Shown here: positions 3,039 through 26,464 of the stretch, one piece after another
How the letters are laid out: the number at the start of each line of letters is the position of its first letter
Position numbering within the stretch: the stretch's first letter is position 1
Assembly: GCA_964459335.1 (NCBI GenBank)
Contig: CAYWJX010000004.1
Location: 1-40,506, forward strand
Length of the DNA: 40,506 bases
Direction: 5' to 3'
DNA from: an uncultured Candidatus Saccharibacteria bacterium
GTDB lineage: Bacteria > Patescibacteriota > Minisyncoccia > Phycocordibacterales > SBAW01
The notes under the pieces: model-generated
The model's input: only the letters and a program-made list of their open reading frames with translations
Database searches by the model: none
What the model was told of the DNA's origin: nothing
Program-made: the position numbers and the translations under genes

Positions 3039-3392
3039 CTATTTTATCTGCCCCAAGGAAAGTGAGCCACTCTCTCCGTGCGCATACACACTTGTCACGT
3101 TGGTAGGAGTGACCAATCCAAGCGCCGTGGCGCGCTCGGGCGTGAGCGACTGTGTCAGCGTTAAATACTGATTTTCGAGAGCGCTTAATTGCTCGGTAAG
3201 TTGCTCCGTACTGCGCTCGGCGGTCGTTTTGGCGGCGGCATTGGCAACCGCCTCAAGCAAAAACGCACAGTACAAAAAGACAGAAACGGTAAGTATTACT
3301 ACCAAAAATACGAGTGCGCGATTGAGATACGGCTGATATACGACCGCCGCTTGCTCGACCCCTCGTTGCATTTGGTTAGTTATCCTTTTCAT
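3039..3392 (-). CDS. FtsL-like single-TM coiled-coil cell division protein
   Basis: One TM then a leucine-rich coiled coil; lies between rsmH and ftsI. Confidence 0.65.
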   Translation of the reverse strand: MKRITNQMQRGVEQAAVVYQPYLNRALVFLVVILTVSVFLYCAFLLEAVANAAAKTTAERSTEQLTEQLSALENQYLTLTQSLTPERATALGLVTPTNVTSVYAHGESGSLSLGQIK

Positions 3393-4485
3393 ACGATTTT
3401 TCTATGACCCGGAGCTTTGCGCTCCGTGCCGAAGGATTTTGGATTATTTCTGCACGACTTGGGACTAAAGGTTTTCCCCGACGTTTCAGTCGGGGCCCCG
3501 ACCCAAAGGCGTCGGGGTTAACGAATGCTCCTTCACCTTTATCCACTAAATTTTGAAAAAGTTTTTTAACCGCGCGGTCCTCGATGCTGTGGAACGTAAT
3601 GACCGCTATGCGGCCGCCGAGTCTAAGGTGCTCCCACGCGGCACCTAACCCCTGCTCAATGCAGGTAATCTCGGCGTTGACCGCCATGCGCAAAGCTTGA
3701 AAGGAACGTGTGGCCGGATGCAAGCGCCCATGGCGGTAAGCGGCAGGCACTGCATCTTTGATTATTTCGGAAAGCTCAACGGTTGTTTCGATAGGCCGTA
3801 TCTCGCGGCGCTCCACTATTGCCTTTGCAATGCGGCGCGCATACGTCTCTTCTCCATAGCCGTAGAGCACATCGGCAATAACTTCCTCTTTCCACTCGTT
3901 TACTATCTCGGATGCAATAAAACCGGAGGCAGGCTTTGCGCCGTAGCTCATGTTGAGAGGCTCGTCGATTAAAAACGAAAACCCCTTGCTTGCCGCGAGC
4001 TGCTCGCGGTTCCAACCCAAATCAAATATAGCTTTATCAATCGTTTTGAGGCCTGCGTGTTTGAGCACTTTTCCTAAATCTTTAAAATTGGCCTCTACGA
4101 CCTCGGCGCGTGCGCCGTATGATACAAGACGCTTGCGCGTGCGCTCCACCGCCGCAAGGTCGGCATCAAGTGCCAGGAGGCGCGCGCCGGCTTTGAGGAC
4201 TGCCTCGCTATGGCCACCGCTGCCTGCCGTGGCATCAACCACCAGCTCGCCTTTTTGTATGTCTAATTGCTCAAGTACTTCCTTGAGCATGACGCTCACA
4301 TGTCTGCCCGCAGGAGTTTTAGAGGCTCCGGACACCGGCACTTGCTGCTGCCTGCCCCGACCTTCACGTCGGGGCTCGCGCAAAGTATCGTTCTCCTCTC
4401 GAGAGGAACGATAGAAGGTACGAACCCCGACGCTCCCTTCGGGAGGTACGGGGCAGGCAGTAGCTAATGTCGGTGTACTTTTCAT
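3376..4485 (-). CDS. rsmH: 16S rRNA m4C1402 methyltransferase RsmH, with ~60-aa N-terminal extension and a 14-aa internal insertion
   Basis: DATAGSGGH, FDLG, HPATRSFQALRMAVN, ITFHSIEDR, NPSARSAKLR; ATG lies 1 nt after the mraZ stop. Confidence 0.95.
   Translation of the reverse strand: MKSTPTLATACPVPPEGSVGVRTFYRSSREENDTLREPRREGRGRQQQVPVSGASKTPAGRHVSVMLKEVLEQLDIQKGELVVDATAGSGGHSEAVLKAGARLLALDADLAAVERTRKRLVSYGARAEVVEANFKDLGKVLKHAGLKTIDKAIFDLGWNREQLAASKGFSFLIDEPLNMSYGAKPASGFIASEIVNEWKEEVIADVLYGYGEETYARRIAKAIVERREIRPIETTVELSEIIKDAVPAAYRHGRLHPATRSFQALRMAVNAEITCIEQGLGAAWEHLRLGGRIAVITFHSIEDRAVKKLFQNLVDKGEGAFVNPDAFGSGPRLKRRGKPLVPSRAEIIQNPSARSAKLRVIEKSYEKDN
3476..3517. repeat. 42-bp double-hairpin palindromic element, copy 2 (inside rsmH)
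   Basis: CCCCGAC-gtttca-GTCGGGG-CCCCGAC-ccaaaggc-GTCGGGG, TT flanks. Confidence 0.9.
4344..4464. repeat. Composite inverted-repeat element forming most of the rsmH 5' extension
   Basis: CTGCCTGCCCCG (4348-4359) and CGGGGCAGGCAG (4449-4460) are a perfect 12-bp inverted repeat enclosing three internal hairpins. Confidence 0.75.
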
Positions 4486-13582: not shown

Positions 13583-13605
13583 CCGTCACTGACGGAACAA
13601 AAAAC

Positions 13606-13643
13606 AACGAGCAGAGAGGTTATCGTCCTCCTGCTCGTTTTTA
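13606..13643. terminator. Intrinsic terminator, probably bidirectional
   Basis: AACGAGCAG...CTGCTCGTT stem with T-run after and A-run before. Confidence 0.7.
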
Positions 13644-13658
13644 TTTTCATATATAAAG

Positions 13659-14768
13659 TTACCCTATGAGGCGCACAATGTCGTGGTAGGACACGACCAC
13701 CATAAGTAGGATGAGGAGCGCAAAGCCGACCATCGTGGCCTTCATCACAAGGCTCGGGCGTATCGGGCGGCGGATTATTGCCTCGATGATAATGATAAGC
13801 AAGCGGCCACCGTCGAGGCCGGGGATTGGTATGAGGTTGATGATTGCGAGGTTAATTGAGATGAGCGCGGTTAAGAGCGCCGCCGCAACCCAGCCTTGCT
13901 TGAGTGTTGCTGCACCAAATACCGTGATACCGATAGGGCCCGCCACCTGGCTAAAGTCGGCGGTGCCGGTTATCAGTTGCTTAAAAAATGTAGCAAGACC
14001 CTGTGCCGTGTTGATGGTAATGTCGTAGCCAAGTACCGCGCCTTGGAGCAGAGCCTGCGGGGGTGCGAGCCTTAGTGTGCCCACATCGGAAAGTTCAACA
14101 CCTATTGCTTTGTGCCCGGGAATTATGCCATCCTCAGCTTTAGCCAAAAATGATTTTTGTACGCCATCGCGCGACACGGTGACAATGACGCTCTCGTTTT
14201 GATGCGCCAAAATAAAGTTGGTGACGGTGTCAGCGGCGCCGGAGTTCTCTGTTTGGACAAGCGAGCGCACATCGAGCGCGGCTGTGGCGGTTTGGACCTC
14301 CTCTATTTGGTCGCTTGCGAGGAGGCCGGACTTTTCGGCCGGAGAGTTGGGTAATACATCGGTTATAAGTACCTGCACGTTGGTAACGGTGCCAAAGGTT
14401 TGAGTACCGGGCGAGGTTGGGATGCCCGCCAGGTAGCCTGCCGAGAGTACGAGCCATGCAAAGAGGAGATTAAACACGATGCCCGCGACAATCACGGCCG
14501 CTTGCACATAGCGCGGCTTGTTTACAAAACTGCGGGGCTCCATTTGCCCCTCGTTGTAGTTTTCGCCAAAGATTTTTACAAACCCGCCAAACGGCAGCCA
14601 GTTGATAGAGTACTCGGTCTCCCCTTTTTTAAAGCTCGCGATGCGCGGCGGAAAAAAGATGCCAAACTCGTCGACGCGTATGCCGCACAATTTTGCAACG
14701 ATAAAGTGCCCAAACTCGTGCACAATAACGAGCACCACCAAAATGAGAATAAAGTAGACGAGGGTCAT
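13659..14768 (-). CDS. rseP: Site-2 (RIP) metalloprotease RseP, family M50 with PDZ domain
   Basis: HEFGH, NLIPIPGLDGG, PDZ-like VLPNSPAEKSGL, VAGPIGI. Confidence 0.93.
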   Translation of the reverse strand: MTLVYFILILVVLVIVHEFGHFIVAKLCGIRVDEFGIFFPPRIASFKKGETEYSINWLPFGGFVKIFGENYNEGQMEPRSFVNKPRYVQAAVIVAGIVFNLLFAWLVLSAGYLAGIPTSPGTQTFGTVTNVQVLITDVLPNSPAEKSGLLASDQIEEVQTATAALDVRSLVQTENSGAADTVTNFILAHQNESVIVTVSRDGVQKSFLAKAEDGIIPGHKAIGVELSDVGTLRLAPPQALLQGAVLGYDITINTAQGLATFFKQLITGTADFSQVAGPIGITVFGAATLKQGWVAAALLTALISINLAIINLIPIPGLDGGRLLIIIIEAIIRRPIRPSLVMKATMVGFALLILLMVVVSYHDIVRLIG

Positions 14769-15349: not shown

Positions 15350-16027
15350 TCAAACTCTAAATATGTTGGCCGCAGGCGGGTAGATTTTGACCAACGGGTC
15401 TTTATCGGTGTCATATATACGCGCGGGAGCCATCCGCCTGCCATACCAGATAACGCGGTGGGTAAACGCGCGCCACTCTTTGTGAGGCAGGAGTTGCATC
15501 AAATCTTTTTCGATTTTTTCGGGTGTTTTTTCGCTTGAGAGGTCAAAACGTTTTACAAACCGTACGACGTGCGTGTCCACAGTAACACCTGCAAGTATGC
15601 CAAACGCCTCGGCAAGCACGACATTGGCGGTTTTGCGCGCAACACCCGGTAAACGCAACAATTCTTCCATTGTTTTAGGAACTCGGCCCGCAGCCTCTTC
15701 TTTTATTATCCTTGCCGAGGCAAGGATGTTTTTTGCTTTGTTGCGATAAAACCCCGACGCAAAAATATCTTTTTCAAACTCGCGCTTCCCACGCGCGCTT
15801 GCACCTGCGCGCACATAAGCGTCGAGCGTTTTGTATTTTTTAAACAACTTTTCGGTAATTTTGTTGACCTGCTTGTCGGTCGATTGCGCGGAGAGTTGTA
15901 CAGCCACCAAAAGCTCCCACGGCGTTTTGTAATTGAGCTCAATTGCCGCATTGGGATACAACTTGGTAAGCGCACAGCTTAGCTTTTGCACGCGCAACTT
16001 TCTTTCTTGTAGTTTTTTAGGAGTCAT
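15350..16027 (-). CDS. nth: Endonuclease III, lacking the Fe-S cluster cysteines
   Basis: LLVAVQLSAQSTD, LPGVARKTANVV (HhH, catalytic Lys), VDTHV (catalytic Asp). Confidence 0.9.
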   Translation of the reverse strand: MTPKKLQERKLRVQKLSCALTKLYPNAAIELNYKTPWELLVAVQLSAQSTDKQVNKITEKLFKKYKTLDAYVRAGASARGKREFEKDIFASGFYRNKAKNILASARIIKEEAAGRVPKTMEELLRLPGVARKTANVVLAEAFGILAGVTVDTHVVRFVKRFDLSSEKTPEKIEKDLMQLLPHKEWRAFTHRVIWYGRRMAPARIYDTDKDPLVKIYPPAANIFRV

Positions 16028-16054: not shown

Positions 16055-16744
16055 TTATATCTTTGGCAGTACCAAGGCTAAATGCTCGAGCAACATTTTA
16101 AACGACGGCGAGCGGTCGCCTGCGTAGGAGCGCACCTTTGCAATATCCTCGAGCGCTTCGCGAAACTCTTTTTTGCCTTGTGATTGCAAGAGTTTTGTGT
16201 GGAGCTCGGTTTCGAGCCCGTTTACAAAAGCCCGCACGCGCTCTCGGGCGCCTTCGTCGTCTTTGAGCAACTCGGTAATAGCCGCACTCCGTGTTTTGTA
16301 TGGAGATTTTAGGAAAGTTAAAATTTGCTGAGCAAAAATGTCTGGTTGAGACGAAGATTTGGGAGCTAAACTCCCAAGGGAGTTTAGCTCCCTTACGTAT
16401 GGGTATGCGAGCATGCGCGAACGTAGTGTTGGCAACAGCACTCCATGTGGTAGCACGAGTACGAGCGTTAGTCCTGCCCGCGGCTCTTCAAGCAATTTGA
16501 GCAACGCTTGTTGCGCCTCAGTAGTAATTGACGAAATCGCGATAATAAAAAAGCTCTTTTCTCCCGCCGATTTAAACGATGCAAGAGTCCTTAGCTCCGC
16601 CGCTTCCTCAACACCAAATTTTTCGTATGCTCGCTCTAAAAAATCGGGGTCGTTCGGTTTGATATGCTCGCGTGCACGCACGTCATCACTCACCTCCCGT
16701 AAGAGATGCGTTTCGCCTTCTAAAAAATAAGCATGGTGAGTCAT
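16055..16744 (-). CDS. holB: DNA polymerase III delta-prime-like subunit
   Basis: HAYFLEG, AQQALLKLLEEP, LLPTLRSR; Walker A degenerate. Confidence 0.72.
   Translation of the reverse strand: MTHHAYFLEGETHLLREVSDDVRAREHIKPNDPDFLERAYEKFGVEEAAELRTLASFKSAGEKSFFIIAISSITTEAQQALLKLLEEPRAGLTLVLVLPHGVLLPTLRSRMLAYPYVRELNSLGSLAPKSSSQPDIFAQQILTFLKSPYKTRSAAITELLKDDEGARERVRAFVNGLETELHTKLLQSQGKKEFREALEDIAKVRSYAGDRSPSFKMLLEHLALVLPKI
16361..16392. repeat. 32-bp palindromic element inside holB
   Basis: GGGAGCTAAACTCCC-AA-GGGAGTTTAGCTCCC: perfect 15-bp inverted repeat, each half itself a hairpin. Confidence 0.8.
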
Positions 16745-16758
16745 TGGGTAAATTATAA

Positions 16759-16832
16759 GCTCCAAAAAAGATTTGTATTTTGTGAGCGCTGCGAGCTGCC
16801 AAGGGGAGCAAAATATAAATCTTTTTAGGAGC
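16759..16832 (+). repeat. Long intergenic hairpin, copy A
   Basis: 25-bp stem (2 G-T pairs, 1 mismatch) around the 24-nt loop GAGCGCTGCGAGCTGCCAAGGGGA. Confidence 0.85.
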
Positions 16833-17845
16833 TACCTTTTAGTAATGATGGCTTTTTTGTACGTATCGAGATGGTTGAGCGCAATACCCGTGCCGCGCGC
16901 CACGCAATAAAGCGGGTCCTCGGCCACGGTGGCTTTGACACCCGTGCGGCGGAGCACGAGCTCGGGAAAGTTGCGTAACAACGAGGTGCCCCCTGTCATG
17001 ATGATACCTCTATCAATAATGTCGGATGCCAGCTCGGGCGGCGTTTCTTGCAACACATCGCGTATCGCTTTGATTATCTCACGGAGCTCTTTGCCGATGG
17101 CTTTAACAATGTCGTTGGTTTTAATCTCAACCGTGCGCGGGAGCCCCGAGATAAAATCGCGGCCGCGCACCATCACCACAAGCTCCTCCTCCATCGGCAC
17201 CGCCGAGCCGATGGCGATTTTGACATCCTCGGCGGTCTTCTCACCGATCCCGAGGTTGTATGTTTTTTTAATATAATCGGCAATCGCGTGGTCGAGTTTG
17301 TCGCCCGCGCATTTAACGCTCGTGGAAGCAACGATGCCGCCGAGGCTAATCACCGCCACGTCGCAGGTTCCGCCGCCGAGGTCCACCACCATGTTGCCGC
17401 GTGCCTCTTGTATCGGAATGCCTGCGCCGATGGCCGCAAGCACCGACTCTTTAACCACGTACGCGCTTTTTGCACCCGCGCGTATCGCGGCCTCAACCAC
17501 TGCTCTACGCTCGGTTGAGGTAACGCCGGTGGGCACGCTAATCATCACCTCCGGTTTAAAAAACTGGAAGCGGCCGAGCGCCTTTTGGATAAAATAACGC
17601 AACATTGCTTGCGTCACGCGATAGTCCGCAATCACGCCGTCGCGGAGCGGCCGGTACGCGACAATCTCGCCCGGCGTGCGGCCTATCATCTCTTTGGCGG
17701 CAAAACCCACCGCCAAAATGCGCTTGTCTACTTCGGATATTGCCACCACCGAAGGCTCGTTGAGGATGACGCCCTTGCCGGGCACAAACACCAGCGTGTT
17801 GGCGGTGCCGAGGTCAATGCCGAGTTTTGGAGTAAAAAAGGCCAT
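16832..17845 (-). CDS. mreB: MreB/Mbl-family actin-like ATPase, second paralog
   Basis: GIDLGTANT, VDLGGGT, GGTSLLR, VARGTG; stand-alone copy. Confidence 0.93.
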   Translation of the reverse strand: MAFFTPKLGIDLGTANTLVFVPGKGVILNEPSVVAISEVDKRILAVGFAAKEMIGRTPGEIVAYRPLRDGVIADYRVTQAMLRYFIQKALGRFQFFKPEVMISVPTGVTSTERRAVVEAAIRAGAKSAYVVKESVLAAIGAGIPIQEARGNMVVDLGGGTCDVAVISLGGIVASTSVKCAGDKLDHAIADYIKKTYNLGIGEKTAEDVKIAIGSAVPMEEELVVMVRGRDFISGLPRTVEIKTNDIVKAIGKELREIIKAIRDVLQETPPELASDIIDRGIIMTGGTSLLRNFPELVLRRTGVKATVAEDPLYCVARGTGIALNHLDTYKKAIITKR

Positions 17846-17892
17846 AAATCACAGCAATGATACTGGATATGACGCAACATAACAAATCTTGC

Positions 17893-17921
17893 TTGACAAA
17901 GCTACTATATACCAGTACAAT
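17893..17921 (+). promoter_or_regulatory. sigma70-type promoter
   Basis: TTGACA-N17-TACAAT. Confidence 0.65.
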
Positions 17922-18064
17922 GATAACTAGATTCGCAGAACAAAGAGAGGCTCATCACGAGCCTCCAAACACAACAATAGAATCATGACGATAAAGCCGG
18001 AAGGTGAAATAAGGCACCATCCAATCGCAGTCTATCCAAAGCCAACAGTAGCAAGGAGACAATC

Positions 18065-18385
18065 ATGCGCGTAGTACCTGAGGGAGGACTTCATTCCCCA
18101 CTGTGGCGTTCGAAACTTGATGCGTCGGAGGGACAAAAAAACCGTATTGCACGGGAAGCCCTCAATCTTCTTAAAGTAATCGAAAATGAGCTGAACCCTG
18201 AGGGATTCACGCTTGAAGAGATGAGGGAAGAAGGCTTCGGCCTCGAGATTGACGAGAAGCGCTTCAACCTTCTCTTTGGTTTCCTCAAGGACATGGGATA
18301 TGTGGAGGCAATCGATGAAGACGGGAGCCAATATCGGTTGAACCAGGAGAAGCTGGCTCCTCCAATTCCGTCGTACCCGGTGTAA
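18065..18385 (+). CDS. Hypothetical protein (106 aa), possibly winged-helix-like
   Basis: AAGGAG RBS, own promoter and terminator; LKDMGYVE...YRL pattern. Confidence 0.65.
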   Translation: MRVVPEGGLHSPLWRSKLDASEGQKNRIAREALNLLKVIENELNPEGFTLEEMREEGFGLEIDEKRFNLLFGFLKDMGYVEAIDEDGSQYRLNQEKLAPPIPSYPV

Positions 18386-18411
18386 ACCGGCATTTGATTC
18401 GAAACAGACTT

Positions 18412-18443
18412 AAAGCCGCGGTCCAAAAGACCGCGACTTTTTC
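18412..18443. terminator. Intrinsic terminator
   Basis: AAAG-C-CGCGGTC caaaa GACCGCG-A-CTTT followed by T-run. Confidence 0.7.
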
Positions 18444-18453
18444 TTTTTGAACA

Positions 18454-19710
18454 TTATGCAGCCACCTCTCTTTTTATATTAAGGCCGAGCTTTTGGAGAC
18501 GTTCCTCTATATGCTCGTAGCCGCGGTCTATGACATAGGCGTTGCTGATGGTTGAGGTGCCTGTCGCAACCGCCGCGGCAATGATATATGCCAAGCCGCC
18601 GCGCAGGTCGGGGCTCTCAAGCTCTTTGCGGCTGAGTATTCTTGGCCCTTTAATTAAAATTTTATGCGGATTCATCACCGTGATGTCGGCGCCCATGCGC
18701 ACGAGGTCGTCGGCATATCTAAAGCGTCCGTCAAAAATCGTTTCGAGTATCGTGCCCTCGCCGGTTGCTTGCGAGAGCAGGACGGCCATCGGCGCTTGGA
18801 GATCGGTGGGGAATCCCGGATACTCGTGCGTGCGCACCGATACAAGCTTAAACGCATTATTTTGTATGCTACCTGCCGATACCTTTATATAGTCGTGGCC
18901 AACCTCAAGCGGTACGCCCGCGCGCTTGAGCAAGGTGATGAGTGCGCCCATGTGTTTTGGTTCACACTGTTTTATCGTGACCTCTTTGCCCGCAAGTGCA
19001 GCGAGTATCACAAAACTCCCCGCCTCAATCCTGTCGGGCGGCGTCACAAACGCTCTGCCTCCTGCTTTGAGCAATCCACCACCGGTAATGGTTATCGTGC
19101 TTCCGCCTGCGCCCTCGATGTGCGCGCCGCAGGAGTTTAAAAACTCTGCCAAGTGCGGTATCTCCGGCTCCATCGCGGCGTTTTCGAGTGTCGTTACACC
19201 TTCAGCGAGCACGGCTGCAAGCATAAGTGTCTCGGTTGCCGTTACCGATACAAATGGGAAGGTGATGTGCGCACCTTTCAATTTTTTATTGGGCGCAGTG
19301 ACTACAAACAAATCATCTTTTTCTTCAACGTTTGCGCCCATCGCTTTAAATCCTTCCAAAAACAAGTCAATAGGCCGCTCGCCGAGCACACATCCGCCGG
19401 GGAACGGGAAGGTTACGGTGCCGAGCCGCGCGAGCAAAGGGCCGGTCATCACAATCGAGGAGCGCATGCGCTCGGATATTTTTTTATCCATCACCGGGTT
19501 GAGCGTATTGCCTTGCTTAGCAATAGCCAAAAGTTCACGCATGCGTGCGACATCCTCTATCTCGGGCATATGTTCGTACTGCAACTCGTCTTCAAACAAA
19601 ATAGACGCGGCGAGCGCTTTGGTGGCCGCGTTTTTAGCACCGCCCACCACAATCTCGCCTTCCAATGTTTTTTTGCCCGCGAGCCCTTCGACGATAAATT
19701 TACTTTGCAT
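18454..19710 (-). CDS. murA: UDP-N-acetylglucosamine 1-carboxyvinyltransferase
   Basis: GAKNA, MRSS, PGGCVLGERPIDL (catalytic Cys), SVTATE, PGFPTDLQ, DLRGG, IDRGYE; start at MQSKF. Confidence 0.96.
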   Translation of the reverse strand: MQSKFIVEGLAGKKTLEGEIVVGGAKNAATKALAASILFEDELQYEHMPEIEDVARMRELLAIAKQGNTLNPVMDKKISERMRSSIVMTGPLLARLGTVTFPFPGGCVLGERPIDLFLEGFKAMGANVEEKDDLFVVTAPNKKLKGAHITFPFVSVTATETLMLAAVLAEGVTTLENAAMEPEIPHLAEFLNSCGAHIEGAGGSTITITGGGLLKAGGRAFVTPPDRIEAGSFVILAALAGKEVTIKQCEPKHMGALITLLKRAGVPLEVGHDYIKVSAGSIQNNAFKLVSVRTHEYPGFPTDLQAPMAVLLSQATGEGTILETIFDGRFRYADDLVRMGADITVMNPHKILIKGPRILSRKELESPDLRGGLAYIIAAAVATGTSTISNAYVIDRGYEHIEERLQKLGLNIKREVAA

Positions 19711-20023
19711 GGTTGTCAGGATGATTTTTAGGATTGATTTCCCACCAAAACTTTTTGGAAAAGTCCTTTGCATTGTCGCATACACTCTTGAGGTAGTACA
19801 AATCCTTGGTGGGTATGGCGAGGAGCAAGCGACCCATGCGCGGCATCGTAAGTTTGCCTAAACCATCGCGCACGCGCGCGGTATTGAGCCGCTCCATAAA
19901 GTATTGCATCAGCTCGCCGCGCTCGGTAACACGGCTTTTCCCCGACGCCTTGGTCGGGGCCCCGACCTCAGAGCGTCGGGGTTGAAGTCCTTTTTTTGAA
20001 ATGTGCGCGCTGATGTGGTCCAT
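19700..20023 (-). CDS. Hypothetical protein (107 aa)
   Basis: Packed between the DsbA-like gene and murA with near-zero gaps; helical, TERGEL...LYYL.S.C.....FSK.FWW. Confidence 0.7.
   Translation of the reverse strand: MDHISAHISKKGLQPRRSEVGAPTKASGKSRVTERGELMQYFMERLNTARVRDGLGKLTMPRMGRLLLAIPTKDLYYLKSVCDNAKDFSKKFWWEINPKNHPDNHAK
19940..19981. repeat. 42-bp double-hairpin palindromic element, copy 3
   Basis: CCCCGAC-gccttg-GTCGGGG-CCCCGAC-ctcagagc-GTCGGGG, TT flanks. Confidence 0.9.
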
Positions 20024-20025
20024 AG

Positions 20026-21102
20026 TTACTTGAGTTGCGCGGGTGCGAGTACCTCGCTGTAACGCTGTCCGCCAAAGAGGATGGTCGGGATTTTAACCGT
20101 GTGGATTTCCTGCTCGACTAGCTGCTTATTCGCGGCAAGTGCGCTTGCTACCTCGGGCGACGCGGCCTCTGTATCAAGCGCCGCTAGCTGGCTTTGTGAA
20201 TATCCCGCCGCAAGGAGGAGCGTGTGGAGTTCGGCGGTAGCTTGCTCGGTGGTGTAGTAGCCGTCAAAAAGGTCTTGCAACTGCGCACCGGTACTATCCT
20301 TGCCGGTAAACACCGCTTGGAGCACCTGCCAATCGGGTGGTGTTGAGCCAGCCGTTGCCGGGGCAATGTGCTTGGCGGCCTCAAGATACTCGGCAATCAG
20401 ATACGAGTTTTTAAACTTGTACTGACCCGGTTTTGTGGGGTTAGGGATTGGATACGCGACGTAGGTGAGGTTGTGGGTGTGCTCAAAATCGGCCGTCTCG
20501 ATGTTGGCAAATAATTTTGCACAATAAATACAGCCGGGGTCGATTATTTCGAGCGCGGTTTGTTTAGATGCGTCAAACGGCGCGTAGTAGGTATTGTCCG
20601 TCGTTATGTAATCCGCGACGTTCCAGTTTTTAAGCCTGTCCGGTATGCGCGTTATGGCCTCGCCAAGATCACTTATCTGATTATAGCCCCACGTAAACTC
20701 GTGATTATCGAGCACCGATTGCCAAAATGTTTCTTGCGCGCTTGCAATAGAGCATGTCTCGGAGCTCAGCGAACATGCCTCGGCATTTTGCGGGTCGCAG
20801 GTGCCATAGACAAAGAGATTGAGCCCCGCGATGAGCACCACAATAAGGCTCCAGATACTGAGCACCACAAAAATAAACGCGAGCACATCAAACCAACGCC
20901 CGAGCCATCGTGCGAGACGCGGATGCGTGATGATGAGCTTGCCCAATAGTTTACCCTTAAGCTCCTCGTCAAAACGTATTTCGCAGGGCCTAAAGGTTAG
21001 TTTGCGCGAGACGCAATACCACGCCTTGCCGGCAAGCCGGCGATAGCGTGCCGAAAAAATCCCGAGGATGCATAAAATGATAAACGCTGCAATGCAAAAC
21101 AT
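20026..21102 (-). CDS. Membrane protein with Cys-rich N-terminal region and C-terminal thioredoxin/DsbA-like domain
   Basis: TM segments; DPGCIYC (CxxC); KIPTILFGG (cis-Pro-like loop). Confidence 0.65.
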   Translation of the reverse strand: MFCIAAFIILCILGIFSARYRRLAGKAWYCVSRKLTFRPCEIRFDEELKGKLLGKLIITHPRLARWLGRWFDVLAFIFVVLSIWSLIVVLIAGLNLFVYGTCDPQNAEACSLSSETCSIASAQETFWQSVLDNHEFTWGYNQISDLGEAITRIPDRLKNWNVADYITTDNTYYAPFDASKQTALEIIDPGCIYCAKLFANIETADFEHTHNLTYVAYPIPNPTKPGQYKFKNSYLIAEYLEAAKHIAPATAGSTPPDWQVLQAVFTGKDSTGAQLQDLFDGYYTTEQATAELHTLLLAAGYSQSQLAALDTEAASPEVASALAANKQLVEQEIHTVKIPTILFGGQRYSEVLAPAQLK

Positions 21103-21105
21103 GGG

Positions 21106-22284
21106 TTATATATTGTTAAGAATTGTTTTTAATGTTGCAACCGCGTGCGTAATGTCCTCCTCCGTATTGTGCGCCCCGAGTGAAAATCGCACGAGCGGCG
21201 GATATTTTTTTAGTTTTTGGAGATAATAGTGACAACAAAAATATCCGCTCCGCACCATGATACCCTGCCCTGCCAACAAAAGCCCCAGCCGGTGCGAATC
21301 TACTTTGTCGCTGTAAAAACTCACAATCGAGCTCGGCTCGGAGTTTATAAGCTTGAGCGGCAACTCACTAAGCGACTTTGAAAGTTGCGTTGCAAGTTTT
21401 GCCTCTGCGCCGCTTGCTTCGTAAGCCGCGAGACGCGGCATTGCCGCATCAAGCCCCACAATGCCGCTGTAGTTTTGGAGACCCGGCTCGAGCAAATCGT
21501 TGGGCTCGATGCTTGTCAAAAAAGAATCCTTTTCGACATCGCGCACCATCCCGCCGCCCACAAACGAAAGTTCAAGTTCGTTGAGGAGTGCAATGCGCGC
21601 GGCCACAACGCCGAGGCTCGGACCATACATTTTATGTGCCGAGGCAACAATCGCATCGGCGCCACACCCACGCAGGAGCGCCGGCTCGTGCGCGGCCGCC
21701 TGTGCCGCGTCGAGTATCACGATGCCGCCATGCGCATGCGCGTCTTTTACTAACTCGCGTACATTGGTGAGCGCTTGCGCGCCAAAGTTGGAGCGTGTAT
21801 TAACCACCACCACCGCGCGCTCAAGATCACCGAGCTCGTAGTGGAGCGCGCCGTCCTCGGCGCGCGACAACACGATGCGCGGGATGCCGAGGCGCTTTGC
21901 AAGCGTCATCGTCGGCAAAAACACCGAGTTGTGCTCAATCTCCGAGGTCGCCACACGCGCGTACTTGCCTCCCGGCAATTGTGCAAGTAAAAGATTAATC
22001 CCGTAGGTGGTGTTGAGCGTAAAAGAAACCGCGTACTCTTTTGTCGAGAGCCCAAAATGCTCGAGCACCCCGGCACGCGCGTGCTCGGTAATTTCGTCGA
22101 CCTTCTCGCCCCACGGATACGAAACCCGCCCGCCGCAGGCGTTGAATGTTTCAAAATATAGACGCTCGGCTTCTATCACTTGCGAAGGCCGCAACGTTTG
22201 GCACGCCGAGTCAAAATAGTAAGCATTGGGCGCGAGATACCCAAAATCCTCTCGAGCATCACCTTTAGCCTTAAATAATGACAT
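21106..22284 (-). CDS. Class V PLP aminotransferase / SufS-like cysteine desulfurase
   Basis: YFDSACQT, EHNSV, LDAAQ, SAHKMYGP (PLP Lys), VRSGYFCC at the group II catalytic Cys position. Confidence 0.85.
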   Translation of the reverse strand: MSLFKAKGDAREDFGYLAPNAYYFDSACQTLRPSQVIEAERLYFETFNACGGRVSYPWGEKVDEITEHARAGVLEHFGLSTKEYAVSFTLNTTYGINLLLAQLPGGKYARVATSEIEHNSVFLPTMTLAKRLGIPRIVLSRAEDGALHYELGDLERAVVVVNTRSNFGAQALTNVRELVKDAHAHGGIVILDAAQAAAHEPALLRGCGADAIVASAHKMYGPSLGVVAARIALLNELELSFVGGGMVRDVEKDSFLTSIEPNDLLEPGLQNYSGIVGLDAAMPRLAAYEASGAEAKLATQLSKSLSELPLKLINSEPSSIVSFYSDKVDSHRLGLLLAGQGIMVRSGYFCCHYYLQKLKKYPPLVRFSLGAHNTEEDITHAVATLKTILNNI

Positions 22285-22307
22285 GTGTCTATTGTATACC
22301 AAATTTA

Positions 22308-22383
22308 AACCTAAAACAGAAATAAGATTTTATTCCCCTTGGCAGCTCGCAGCGCTCATAAAATCTTATTTCTGTTTTAGGTT
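22308..22383 (-). repeat. Long intergenic hairpin, copy B
   Basis: Perfect 26-bp inverted repeat AACCTAAAACAGAAATAAGATTTTAT around the reverse complement of the same 24-nt loop as copy A. Confidence 0.9.
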
Positions 22384-22426
22384 CCCCTTTCTTTTTTTTC
22401 CAAACATGGCATAATAAAAATCTCGT

Positions 22427-23002
22427 ATGAAAGACCCTATTGTGCAGGCGGGAGCGCTGGTGCTACGGCAAAAGGCAAAACCGGTCGCCAAAAAAGATAT
22501 TGCGTCGCCGACCATACAAAAGATTATCGCCCACATGAAAAAGGCCTTGTCTTGTGAGGATTTTGGCGTCGCCATCGCAGCCCCCCAAATCGGCGAGCCC
22601 TTGCGTATGTTTGTGATTGCCGGCAAAGCCTTTTTGACTGACGAGGATAAAAAAGCTTTTGAAGAAGACAAGCACACCAAGCGCGAGGTGCCGCCCGACC
22701 TGGTGTTTATAAACCCCGAGCTCACACGCCTCTCCCGCAAACAAAAAGAAATGTCGGAGGGTTGCCTCTCGGTGCGCGGCAAATATGGCACCGTGATGCG
22801 CCGCGAAAAAGCAACCGTCAAAGCACTCAACGAAACCGGCAAGCCATTTGTCTATCACGGTTCGGGGCTTATCGCACACATCTTTCAACACGAGTACGAT
22901 CATCTTGACGGCATTTTGTATACCGACAAAGCAGTTAAACTGGAGGAGGATCAGGATTTAAAAAGCGCCCGTAAAAAACTCAAAGAAAAACACCACGTCT
23001 AA
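22427..23002 (+). CDS. def: Peptide deformylase
   Basis: GVAIAAPQIG, EGCLSV, QHEYDHLDG. Confidence 0.97.
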   Translation: MKDPIVQAGALVLRQKAKPVAKKDIASPTIQKIIAHMKKALSCEDFGVAIAAPQIGEPLRMFVIAGKAFLTDEDKKAFEEDKHTKREVPPDLVFINPELTRLSRKQKEMSEGCLSVRGKYGTVMRREKATVKALNETGKPFVYHGSGLIAHIFQHEYDHLDGILYTDKAVKLEEDQDLKSARKKLKEKHHV

Positions 23003-24713: not shown

Positions 24714-24800
24714 ACATTCCGCGATAGGGCCGACGCAAGGTCGGCCTCCCGACCGAAGCGTCGGGACTCAATATTGCAGAGTGCGTACATTCCGCGATAG
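24714..24800 (+). repeat. 14-bp direct repeat ACATTCCGCGATAG enclosing a 39-bp double hairpin
   Basis: Copies at 24714-24727 and 24787-24800; GGCCGAC-GCAAG-GTCGGCC-TCCCGAC-CGAAGC-GTCGGGA at 24728-24766. Confidence 0.75.
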
Positions 24801-24862
24801 CTCAATGGTAGAGCAGCTCCCTGTTAAGGAGTTGGTTCCAGGTTCGAGTCCTGGTCGCGGAG
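24791..24862 (+). tRNA. tRNA-Asn (GTT), CCA not encoded
   Basis: Acceptor TCCGCGA/TCGCGGA, D arm GCTC/GAGC, anticodon arm GCTCC-CTGTTAA-GGAGT, T arm CCAGG-TTCGAGT-CCTGG. Confidence 0.96.
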
Positions 24863-26464
24863 CACTGTAGGATTTTCGAGGCATAAACGTTCAAAATCGC
24901 CTTGTTTATCAACGTTTTTTGGAGGTTCTAACCTTTCCTTTATCGCCATTACTTCCGGTGAGATTTTTTTCATCGGGAATAGGCATTTCTCCAAGTCAAT
25001 GCTGAGTTTTTTGTCTTTCAAGAGGAGGTTCGAACCGAGAGTCGAAAGCATCGTGCGTTTGGTCTGAAGGCTGCCGTTTTTGAAACGTATCTTCGCCTGC
25101 TCGATAAAGGTGAGCATCTCGTCGCCGGTGCGGTTCCATTGATCGACACGGTTGTCGGTTAGGTCGAGGCGTTTTTTGAAGTTGTGTTTTTCGGCAAAGT
25201 ACTCGGCTTGTTTTTTAGCAAAATCCTCGTGGGTAATCTCGCCGGAGGCCCGCATATCAAGCAGGTTGCTCAGCTTCGCCACAACGGCGTTATATGCCTT
25301 TTCCTGCGATCCTAGGACCGTTTGCTGTTCAGCTCCCTCCCGGGCGTTTTCGGCCCTAAACCACTTCATAGCAAAGCTATGGAACTCCGGCGGTATCTCG
25401 ATGCTGTCTATCTCTGCGACAACCTGTTTTTTGAACTCGCTGACCTCTATAGCGCCCTGTGTGCAAGCGGTCTTCCGGCGGTGAGTGCAATGATAGTAGA
25501 CGTAGGTGTGGATGTTGCCGTTTTGCTGCCGCTTGGTCTTGAGTTCGGCCGTCACCATTGCCCCGCAGTGGCCGCAGCGCACCATGCCGGTAAACTCAAA
25601 GAGCTGGGTCTTGGGCCGTGGCCTCCCATCGCGTCCCATGAGGGCCTGTACGCGGTCAAACTCCTCCGGGGTGACCATTGGCTCGTGGGTGCCTTGCCAC
25701 CACTGGCCAGTCCCTTTTGGGAACTCAAACATGCCGTAATAAAAGGGGTTGCGGAAAATCCAATAAATGCCACTCCGTGCGAGCTTTTTGCCTTTCTTGG
25801 TCCTCAGCCCCCACTCATTCGTCGCGATCTCGCGTATTTTGAGCGGAGAGTAGGTGCCGGTGAGCATCAACTCCCAGCACTTGCGGACGAGCACAAAACG
25901 CTCGGAGTCTTTAGGTATTTGCTTATCGCCTTTCTGCCCGTACTTGTCGTTGCCGTAGCCGATGGGCGCGAGGTTGGGCATAATACCCATCTCAGCTTTT
26001 TTCATGAGTCCGCGCTTCACGTCGACGCCTTTTTTGTCGTTCTCCATCTTCGCCTGCGTGCACTGCAGCATGAACATGAACTTATCAAAGGGCGTATTGC
26101 GGAAAGTCTGGCCCGGCGTCACTATCTCAACCAGTTTGCCGCGGTCCATACAATCAATGAGCATCGCAGAGTCGATGGCGTTGCGTGAAAGACGGTCAGG
26201 GTGCCAAGTGATGATGGCATTTATATCGCCGCGCTCAATACGCGCCACCATCTCTGAAAACTGCGCTCGCTTGCCAGTTACCTTAGCGGACTTCGACTCG
26301 CTCAAGATATTGTTTTCGTCGATCTGCACGCCGATTGACTTCGCAAGGTCACGCCCTTTGTCGAGTTGAGACTCAAGCGAAAGCACTTGCCGGTCCTCGG
26401 CCTCGCTTGATTTCCTGCAATACAGGCCGTGAATGGTCGTGATGGCGTTCGTTGTTTTTTGCAT
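24824..26464 (-). CDS. Large serine recombinase (resolvase, recombinase and Zn-ribbon domains)
   Basis: YCRKSS catalytic motif, DRLSRN, APIGY, CGHCG...YYHC, coiled coil; last residues LRDQDSNLEPTP are antisense tRNA sequence. Confidence 0.93.
   Translation of the reverse strand: MQKTTNAITTIHGLYCRKSSEAEDRQVLSLESQLDKGRDLAKSIGVQIDENNILSESKSAKVTGKRAQFSEMVARIERGDINAIITWHPDRLSRNAIDSAMLIDCMDRGKLVEIVTPGQTFRNTPFDKFMFMLQCTQAKMENDKKGVDVKRGLMKKAEMGIMPNLAPIGYGNDKYGQKGDKQIPKDSERFVLVRKCWELMLTGTYSPLKIREIATNEWGLRTKKGKKLARSGIYWIFRNPFYYGMFEFPKGTGQWWQGTHEPMVTPEEFDRVQALMGRDGRPRPKTQLFEFTGMVRCGHCGAMVTAELKTKRQQNGNIHTYVYYHCTHRRKTACTQGAIEVSEFKKQVVAEIDSIEIPPEFHSFAMKWFRAENAREGAEQQTVLGSQEKAYNAVVAKLSNLLDMRASGEITHEDFAKKQAEYFAEKHNFKKRLDLTDNRVDQWNRTGDEMLTFIEQAKIRFKNGSLQTKRTMLSTLGSNLLLKDKKLSIDLEKCLFPMKKISPEVMAIKERLEPPKNVDKQGDFERLCLENPTVLRDQDSNLEPTP

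Follow-up and report, generated by a model that had tools for sequence, protein, structure and literature searches.

A Dispersed Family of Loop-Conserved Palindromic Hairpins in Candidate Phyla Radiation Bacteria, Probably Moved in Trans

Introduction

Rickettsia palindromic elements (RPEs) lie between genes as well as in frame within unrelated housekeeping genes, to which they add a peptide segment that is tolerated by the protein fold (PMC10969869). They are short and palindromic, code for no protein themselves, and no transposase of theirs is known. To our knowledge, their origin and mobilization have been an open question since 2000. Hairpins that behave in a comparable manner are described here, starting from a 40,506-nucleotide stretch of DNA, hereafter the window (contig CAYWJX010000004.1 of assembly GCA_964459335.1, positions 1 to 40,506), from an uncultured Candidatus Saccharibacteria bacterium of the Candidate Phyla Radiation (CPR), a group of bacteria with tiny, streamlined genomes that are thought to be poor in repeats. 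The window carries two hairpins, copies A and B, which share one loop on two different stems and which probably belong to a dispersed, non-coding and non-autonomous palindromic repeat family of Paceibacteria-type CPR bacteria that is moved by a trans-acting enzyme reading the loop. Full-text searches of the literature yielded no account of elements of this kind from CPR or Patescibacteria.

Like RPEs, the new elements are short palindromes without coding capacity or known transposase that are inserted between genes and in frame in unrelated genes, here those of TsaD, Tgt, UvrB, UvrC and an ArgS-like protein. Unlike RPEs, which measure 100-150 bp, they are about 75 bp long, all their hosts are CPR bacteria, a different phylum, their conservation is concentrated in 17 nt of the loop with variable arms, and both loop orientations occur in frame; homology to RPE-1 to RPE-10, the hosts of which are Rickettsiales, is unlikely. 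The repetitive extragenic palindromic (REP) sequences of the REP/REPIN-RAYT systems are likewise hairpin-forming, non-autonomous and vertically persistent, with compensatory stem changes and no target duplication, and their recognition is presumed to occur on single-stranded DNA. However, in REPs and REPINs the stem-forming REP with its 5' GTAG or GTGG is conserved and the spacer is variable, whereas the reverse holds here and no GTAG head is present; moreover, REPs are extragenic, while at least 10 copies of the present family are in frame inside open reading frames (ORFs). Correia elements (CREE/NEMIS) have inverted-repeat arms of about 26 bp, are located next to or within genes and are documented to invert (PMC10969869), and the arms, the genic or near-genic location and the loop inversion of the new family parallel theirs. 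[quoted passage not shown] Finally, the subterminal hairpins of IS200/IS605 and their miniature derivatives are recognized as single-stranded DNA on one strand only, tolerate G.T pairs and leave no target duplication; unlike the single symmetric hairpin without flank motif described here, they depend on two dissimilar ends and on a target tetra- or pentanucleotide that is fixed. The family thus behaves like RPEs and REPINs and yet fails the defining features of sequence and organization of REP/REPIN and of classical MITEs, its identity residing in the loop.

A Hairpin Family Defined by Its Loop

Exactly two sites of the window hold the 24-nt loop GAGCGCTGCGAGCTGCCAAGGGGA, one at 16784-16807 on the plus strand and one at 22334-22357 on the minus strand; shuffles of the window (n = 100) give an expectation of 0 such sites, and allowing up to 3 mismatches adds no third site in the window. 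Copy A is a palindromic element of 76 bp (16758..16833, plus strand, i.e., the strand with 5'-GAGCGCTGCGAGCTGCCAAGGGGA-3' in the loop) that was delimited by folding, an inverted-repeat finder and a covariance model. According to the inverted-repeat finder, its arms (AGCTCCAAAAAAGATTTGTATTTTG at 16758..16782 and the 3' arm at 16809..16833, plus strand) are 25 nt each, 92% complementary and 26 nt apart, and they enclose an unpaired loop (16783-16808) in which the invariant 17-mer CGCTGCGAGCTGCCAAG occupies positions 16787..16803 of the plus strand. Copy B, also of 76 bp (22308..22383, loop motif on the minus strand; inverted-repeat finder and covariance model), has arms of 26 nt that are 24 nt apart and 100% complementary (AACCTAAAACAGAAATAAGATTTTAT on the plus strand at 22308..22333, and its perfect complement at 22358..22383); its 17-mer, located by loop comparison at 22338..22354 on the minus strand, reads CTTGGCAGCTCGCAGCG on the plus strand. 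The covariance model matches copy A at 16757-16834 (92 bits) and copy B at 22307-22384 (90 bits), and both strands of both copies fold far better than shuffled sequences (z of -3.9 to -9.7 as RNA and -6.5 to -10 as DNA). The stems have about 20% GC, versus about 52% for the genome and window average. The original prediction, made from the sequence alone, had reported this identical loop on two differing AT-rich stems of 25-26 bp, and the loop search and inverted-repeat finder confirm it. It had given the limits of copy B exactly and its stem correctly as perfect, whereas copy A extends about 1 nt beyond the predicted limits at each end; the two G-T pairs and one mismatch ascribed to copy A come close to what was found, namely one G.T (A.C on the other strand), one T.T/A.A mismatch and one T.G adjoining the loop.

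The two copies are members of a much larger family. A scan of one genome per species for the exact central 22-mer returned 9 stretches, 7 of which are long hairpins with other stems in 4 CPR metagenome-assembled genomes labeled Paceibacterota, Adlerbacteria and 'Saccharibacteria', and a second scan of metagenome contigs, again for the exact 22-mer, returned 34 stretches with about 41 matches, nearly all of them hairpins of the same build, which adds about 38 copies on 31 stretches to the 7 of the first scan; most of the stretches come from a single peat/wetland sample series, with further ones from groundwater and other places. When 448 kb of fetched DNA (the fetched loci carry L numbers below) were searched with a covariance model based on 44 distinct copies, 47 distinct copies were recovered, and in the window only copies A and B, so that the search of CPR DNA that had been proposed with the original prediction indeed yielded further copies beyond the two. 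In the source wetland sequencing run, the core word reaches a depth of 339 and the flanks one of 8.8. Contigs of the assembly break off at the element, which is what a repeat present a few dozen times should cause. Chance similarity, one local duplication event or an error of assembly, in favor of which one can cite only that two copies had been seen at the outset, is therefore an explanation of vanishing probability: none is expected by chance, the 47 distinct copies come from independent studies and assemblers, orthologous positions are occupied in independent assemblies, and ORFs are preserved through the genic copies.

The exact 22-mer also occurs in Olsenella porci and relatives (Actinomycetota; L003 1813-1834, L008 1407-1428 and L038 321-342). 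There, it was rejected as an inserted element since it is part of a native class-C sortase-like coding sequence (…HAERCELPRGW…); it is flanked by a 7-bp inverted repeat with one compensatory difference between two species. This match is probably a coincidence, the chance expectation being about 0.1-0.2.

The repeated unit is the whole hairpin, of about 70-78 bp, with arms of 24-27 nt, a loop of 22-26 nt and an abrupt end of complementarity. The 5' arm is rich in A and the 3' arm rich in T whichever strand is read, and about half of the copies terminate in AG...CT with A/T outside and no further consistent flank motif. Three core subtypes can be distinguished at the loop edges: ...TTTTG-TG/AG-CAAAA... 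in the first, ...GGATG-CG/AG-CAGGAG..., with an internal loop, in the second, and CTCAC.../...GTGAG, which lengthens the stem by 5 bp, in the third. CGCTGCGAGCTGCCAAG is retained in all three. All 24 loop nucleotides are shared by copies A and B, as originally noted, but only the central 17 are invariant family-wide. Two resemblances of the core were dropped: a sigma-54 or NF-I-like reading of TTGGCAGCTCGCAGC, inspected by eye, because its spacing is off by one, and that of GCUGCCAAGG to GCAGCCAAGG of the signal recognition particle RNA, since the element is multi-copy and has no Rfam match.

In a gap-free alignment of 78 columns, 94.8% of the cells of the 24-bp helix are paired, versus 68.3% in shuffled alignments and 45-57% with slid partners, and double-sided changes occur in 21 of the 24 helix pairs, the mean column identity of the arms being low. 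The arms thus evolve through paired substitutions around an unchanged 17-mer, which upholds in quantitative terms the conserved loop on a compensated stem of the original prediction; instead of two copies without covariation, 47 copies with strong covariation were found. Subfamilies of arms are nevertheless recognizable, e.g., AAAAAGATTTACATTTTG and AAAACAAAAGTTTGATTTTG, with differing outer parts, and the same mismatch at the same arm position is found in 7-9 copies at different loci. Such shared subfamily mismatches mean that both arms are copied together as the element spreads.

With its constant loop and its variable, complementary arms, the element bears a superficial likeness to guide scaffolds, and TIGR-Tas systems, which consist of tandem units beside a Tas (Nop-domain) gene with box C/D motifs and spacers in the loops, do occur in CPR bacteria (PMC12045711). 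That the arms are guides or spacers of a hairpin guide RNA or TIGR-like unit is nonetheless highly improbable. The arms form descent-related subfamilies rather than unrelated spacers, arm 20-mers match viral contigs at chance level and without extension, and many copies are translated parts of genes. Membership of TIGR-Tas was rejected as the copies are solitary and scattered, neither arrayed nor beside a Tas/Nop gene, and the loop is fully conserved, with neither box C/D motifs nor internal spacers. In 2.9 million viral contigs, the core does not occur.

Gain, Loss and Inversion at Orthologous Sites

Four syntenic loci were found via homologues of the holB-like protein encoded next to copy A, the closest relatives having about 85% nucleotide identity. 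An entire element occupies site A in the window and in L033/L049; the site is empty in L048 and the outgroup L050, in which the stop and start codons of the adjoining genes are separated by just 9-12 nt. In L047, a solo arm is found instead, TAG-CTCC-CAAAAAGATTTGCATTTTG-GGAG-CTTATAAT, i.e., one arm and the last four bases of the other arm, a form such as would be produced by deletion between the TTTTG direct repeats. Arms of the same sequence occur at L010 and L028, two unrelated loci, so that the solo arm stems from the element rather than from a target present beforehand. Site B is full with the same element in the window and in L048, is empty in L047, and in L049/L012 an element of another subfamily lies a few bases away. 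The unit is thus gained and lost between related genomes, is copied with its two arms jointly, and decays via loss of the loop and one arm. The check for empty sites in relatives that had been suggested beforehand was therefore positive at both sites, and the idea of a REP/MITE-like repeat element is supported by the 47 distinct copies, the presence or absence among syntenic relatives, the decayed solo arm and the in-frame genic copies.

Another change observed between close relatives is inversion in place. Measured against the flanks, the loop and its asymmetric edges point in opposite directions in the window and in its relatives, at site A as well as at site B, and in copy A a mismatch of the inner arm has been inverted together with the loop. 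The original prediction had anticipated neither these inversions nor the in-frame copies within genes.

An insert of 15 additional residues in TsaD and site B of L012/L049 had prompted the idea that the arms derive from the target by inverted duplication of the flank at insertion. As a general rule this was rejected in view of the L047 solo arm and the many arms common to unrelated loci, as well as of subfamily mismatches inherited in both arms and of the empty sites of L048 and L050, which contain neither arm.

In L030, a truncated second copy (…ACATTTTGCTCCCCGTGG…) lies about 40 nt upstream of the full copy at 13586-13673, which indicates a tandem or nested insertion followed by decay.

Copies Within Genes and the TsaD Hot Spot

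The copies that are in frame within long ORFs, of which there are at least 10, are found in TsaD (L004, L005, L029 and L023), Tgt (L009, L021 and L022), UvrC (L006 and L022), UvrB (two adjacent copies in L022) and an ArgS-like gene (L041). The core is translated as (A)PLGSSQR(S) in one orientation and as (S)AASCQGE when flipped. In sum, the places that tolerate the unit are those following a stop codon, the spacers of convergent genes and, in frame, surface-loop positions of essential proteins.

In TsaD, compared with the solved E. coli protein, the insert amounts to about 19 extra residues between ...LSKMA.. and FPRPM. Among 120 CPR TsaD homologues, the PGGP...FSGLK stretch has 42 residues in most and 44-87 in roughly half, and the segment from PGGP..LA to LPRPM is an insertion hot spot in which about half of the homologues have 2-45 extra residues. 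The longer segments hold the family of the window (family 1) in either orientation, or at least 5 other recurring insert types, and some hold two inserts, nested or adjacent. Where the DNA of the other TsaD inserts was fetched (L023, L045, L046, L051 and L052), they, too, prove to be hairpins, in which a covarying outer stem surrounds a conserved, internally structured core. The family of the window is therefore one of several that share permissive spots.

Other occurrences of such hairpins were observed along the way. The TsaD of L044 (P0009) has a normal segment of 42 residues that reads …PIFVSLPRPM, and its DNA, GAGCAGGAACCGATTTTTGTTTCGCTC, matches the outer arms of the element in its closest relatives; this is probably the scar of a deletion and not a site that never held an element. 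Hairpins of other families are in frame in def of L049 (2204-2287; a 'family 3' core that is also found in TsaD) and in the holB-like gene of L047 (10349-10427), whereas the def and holB genes of the window itself are free of these. L051 has two copies of a 112-nt hairpin family (14584-14695 and 15376-15487) with a common core of about 70 nt (…GAGTGTCATAAGAYCCGACGGGGTCGATGCTAGGAAATTTT…) and quite different outer stems, which is again a constant-core, variable-stem build.

Constraint on the Loop and Probable Selection on the Fold

Between orthologous copies in genes, 15-28 of the 48 arm positions (31-58%) and as many as 5 of the 9 loop-edge positions differ, while the 17-mer CGCTGCGAGCTGCCAAG shows 0/17 differences in every orthologous pair, synonymous codon positions included. 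This constancy favors the main alternative to a mobile element, i.e., that the family is a domesticated host DNA signal in which the 17-mer, presented on an extruded or single-stranded hairpin, is a binding site of a chromosomal protein or an initiation site under purifying selection in every copy, genic ones included, serving, e.g., nucleoid organization, lagging-strand priming, or as a repair or recombination landmark. The persistence of copies across genomes that are about 15% diverged, an orientation irrelevant to local transcription, the bias of non-Watson-Crick pairs to one strand and the stable folding of both DNA strands also agree with such a signal. However, the sites are dispensable, as close relatives have them empty or decayed, related assemblies differ greatly in copy number, and free flipping of the loop would lose any strand-specific role relative to replication. 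In addition, other families with different cores have the same architecture and occupy even the same TsaD spot, which looks like parasitism of permissive sites. A host signal is thus considered rather unlikely.

Selection could also act at the level of RNA, the hairpin being a cis-acting transcript stabilizer, RNase III site, terminator or regulatory element. The strong helix covariation with a conserved loop would be expected from a structured RNA, the intergenic copies are enriched at gene 3' ends (10 in convergent spacers versus 3 in divergent ones), and both Correia elements, the transcribed hairpin of which is cut by RNase III, and ERIC elements are RNase substrates (PMC10969869). Furthermore, G.U-type wobbles are concentrated on one strand: 30 G.T pairs are on the strand of CGCTGCGAGCTGCCAAG/CGCTGCG versus 5 on the other, or perhaps 15 versus 5 as independent events, since subfamilies share mismatches. 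Yet, copy orientation relative to the transcription of neighboring genes is mixed, the wobble-tolerant strand being sense in only about half of the copies, and the opposite strand is in the mRNA for 8 of 11 genic copies. The loop is inverted between orthologues that keep the element, and a 25-bp hairpin within tsaD, tgt and uvrBC mRNAs has no obvious regulatory logic. A terminator role was dismissed, as the recognizable terminators of this genome and region are ordinary GC-rich hairpins located elsewhere and the elements are not picked up among them. No Rfam family is matched either: with the whole window at gathering thresholds only the tRNA-Asn passes, and around copy A at permissive E-values just generic miRNA-precursor hairpin models appear, far below threshold. 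The structured non-coding RNA entertained in the original prediction is weakened by the two orientations relative to transcription, the in-frame copies and the flips between close relatives, and selection on RNA is accordingly held to be a shade less credible than a host DNA signal. Because of the mixed orientation and the strand-specific tolerance of wobbles, the selected fold would be that of one strand of single-stranded DNA rather than of RNA.

Complementarity of the arms could also be kept by template switching, although the persistent G.T mismatches and the strand bias favor selection on the fold.

Proposed Mobilization of the Family

In the proposed mechanism of the mobile, non-autonomous family, a trans-acting enzyme would move or copy the element by reading the sequence of the loop, whatever the sequence of the stem that presents it. 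Its substrate would most probably be single-stranded DNA of the CGCTGCGAGCTGCCAAG strand, in the manner in which HUH/Y1 enzymes read REP/REPIN or IS200/IS605 hairpins, and insertion would leave no target duplication. Selection on the fold, aided by template switching in the palindrome, would keep the arms complementary, and template switching would at the same time invert the loop. The reversed conservation pattern and the apparent lack of target duplication could both be accounted for by an enzyme that recognizes loop sequence together with stem shape.

RayT-like Y1 (HUH) transposases of about 217-225 amino acids are very common in Patescibacteria, with more than 5000 homologues. A link of RayT to the family was tried and not demonstrated, as the repeats that flank these genes differ from the element and no such gene is near the copies. 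For instance, the RayT-like gene of L053 (7872-8534) has a REP-like hairpin, GTAGCAAGGG-TAG-CCCTTGCTAC, on both sides, and that of L051 (19652-20302) is flanked by inverted GCGGGAAGCTAAACTTC. The HUH-enzyme target that the original prediction had listed, beside a cruciform-forming site, is a candidate reading of the hairpins.

Several points weigh against mobilization in trans by such an enzyme. Neither a Y1 transposase nor another linked enzyme is found in 532 kb of fetched loci around copies, and, among about 45 exact-core loci, there is no autonomous element with the core and no transposase is carried; REP/REPIN systems have a single-copy RAYT gene flanked by its cognate repeats, but no RAYT flanked by family copies occurs in the 532 kb, and the CPR RayT genes examined are flanked by short GTAG REP hairpins or other inverted repeats and not by this element. 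No target motif can be defined, the flanks being consistent only in A/T, and comparison of filled and empty sites A and B, the flanks of which have diverged, reveals no clear direct repeat. The strand asymmetry of G.T pairs is less pronounced when counted as independent events, as given above. Moreover, the perfect 17-mer in old orthologous copies is not predicted by a purely selfish element and better fits a host-level function. This invariance is in part ascertained, as the public scans demanded the exact core; in an unbiased if small sample, the secondary copies in fetched flanks, 7 cores are exact and 3 are variants, all with an intact 17-mer. Lastly, repeated homing, and not descent, could be behind the identical sites found in TsaD, Tgt and UvrC.

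A broader proposal, put forward tentatively, is that 'loop-defined' hairpin elements may form a whole class, hitherto undescribed, in CPR/Paceibacteria, comprising family 1 and at least 5 others, with a constant structured core and a covarying outer stem. It is similarly conceivable, if still doubtful, that this class reuses permissive spots in TsaD, Def, HolB, Tgt and UvrBC and that the loop is its heritable identity under purifying selection. If true, this would imply dedicated hairpin-reading machinery, either a new system of single-stranded DNA transposition or copying, or a host function residing in coding and non-coding DNA.

For genome annotation, hairpins of about 75 bp present in tens of copies per genome, and in frame in tsaD, tgt, uvrB and uvrC, change how proteins and intergenic regions are to be described: inserts of 14-45 residues in conserved enzymes would be mobile DNA and not lineage-specific domains, and assemblies break at the repeats. 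An invariant loop on a stem free to vary, an apparent lack of target duplications and frequent inversion also constitute a clean natural data set that can help to separate selection on structure from template switching in palindromes, and to find the loop-reading enzyme. As a second, independent system with many more sequenced relatives, the family makes the question of the origin and mobilization of RPEs testable.

Genomic Context and Other Features of the Window

Both copies are intergenic, and Pfam agrees with the gene settings named in the original prediction, mreB/holB and sufS-like/def. Copy A lies between an mreB paralogue (MreB, 16832..17845, minus strand; PF06723, 6.8e-134), the TAG stop codon of which (16832-16834, minus strand) overlaps the outermost bases of the palindrome, i.e., the final bases of the 3' arm, and a gene for a DNA polymerase III delta'-like protein (holB-like, 16055..16744, minus strand; PF13177), which starts 14 nt past the copy. 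Copy B is located in the spacer between the divergent genes for a class-V aminotransferase (SufS/IscS-like, 21106..22284, minus strand; PF00266) and the peptide deformylase Def (22427..23002, plus strand; PF01327).

Two further features of the window are unrelated to the family. A GC-rich compound palindrome of about 145 nt with nested hairpins (4332-4476) lies just upstream of rsmH/mraW; it folds with -94.5 and -91.6 kcal/mol on the two strands (z of about -10) and belongs to no Rfam family. An ORF (3376-4485) probably reads through this palindrome, its Pfam match beginning only at residue 61. Elsewhere, a tRNA-Asn (24791-24863) is immediately followed by a large serine recombinase gene (24824-26464, minus strand) with Resolvase, Recombinase and Zn-ribbon domains, downstream of which are, among others, genes for NYN-domain, SPFH, L,D-transpeptidase and C39 peptidase proteins. 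This region looks like an element integrated at the tRNA, and a similar recombinase is present at the corresponding place in L048 and L050.

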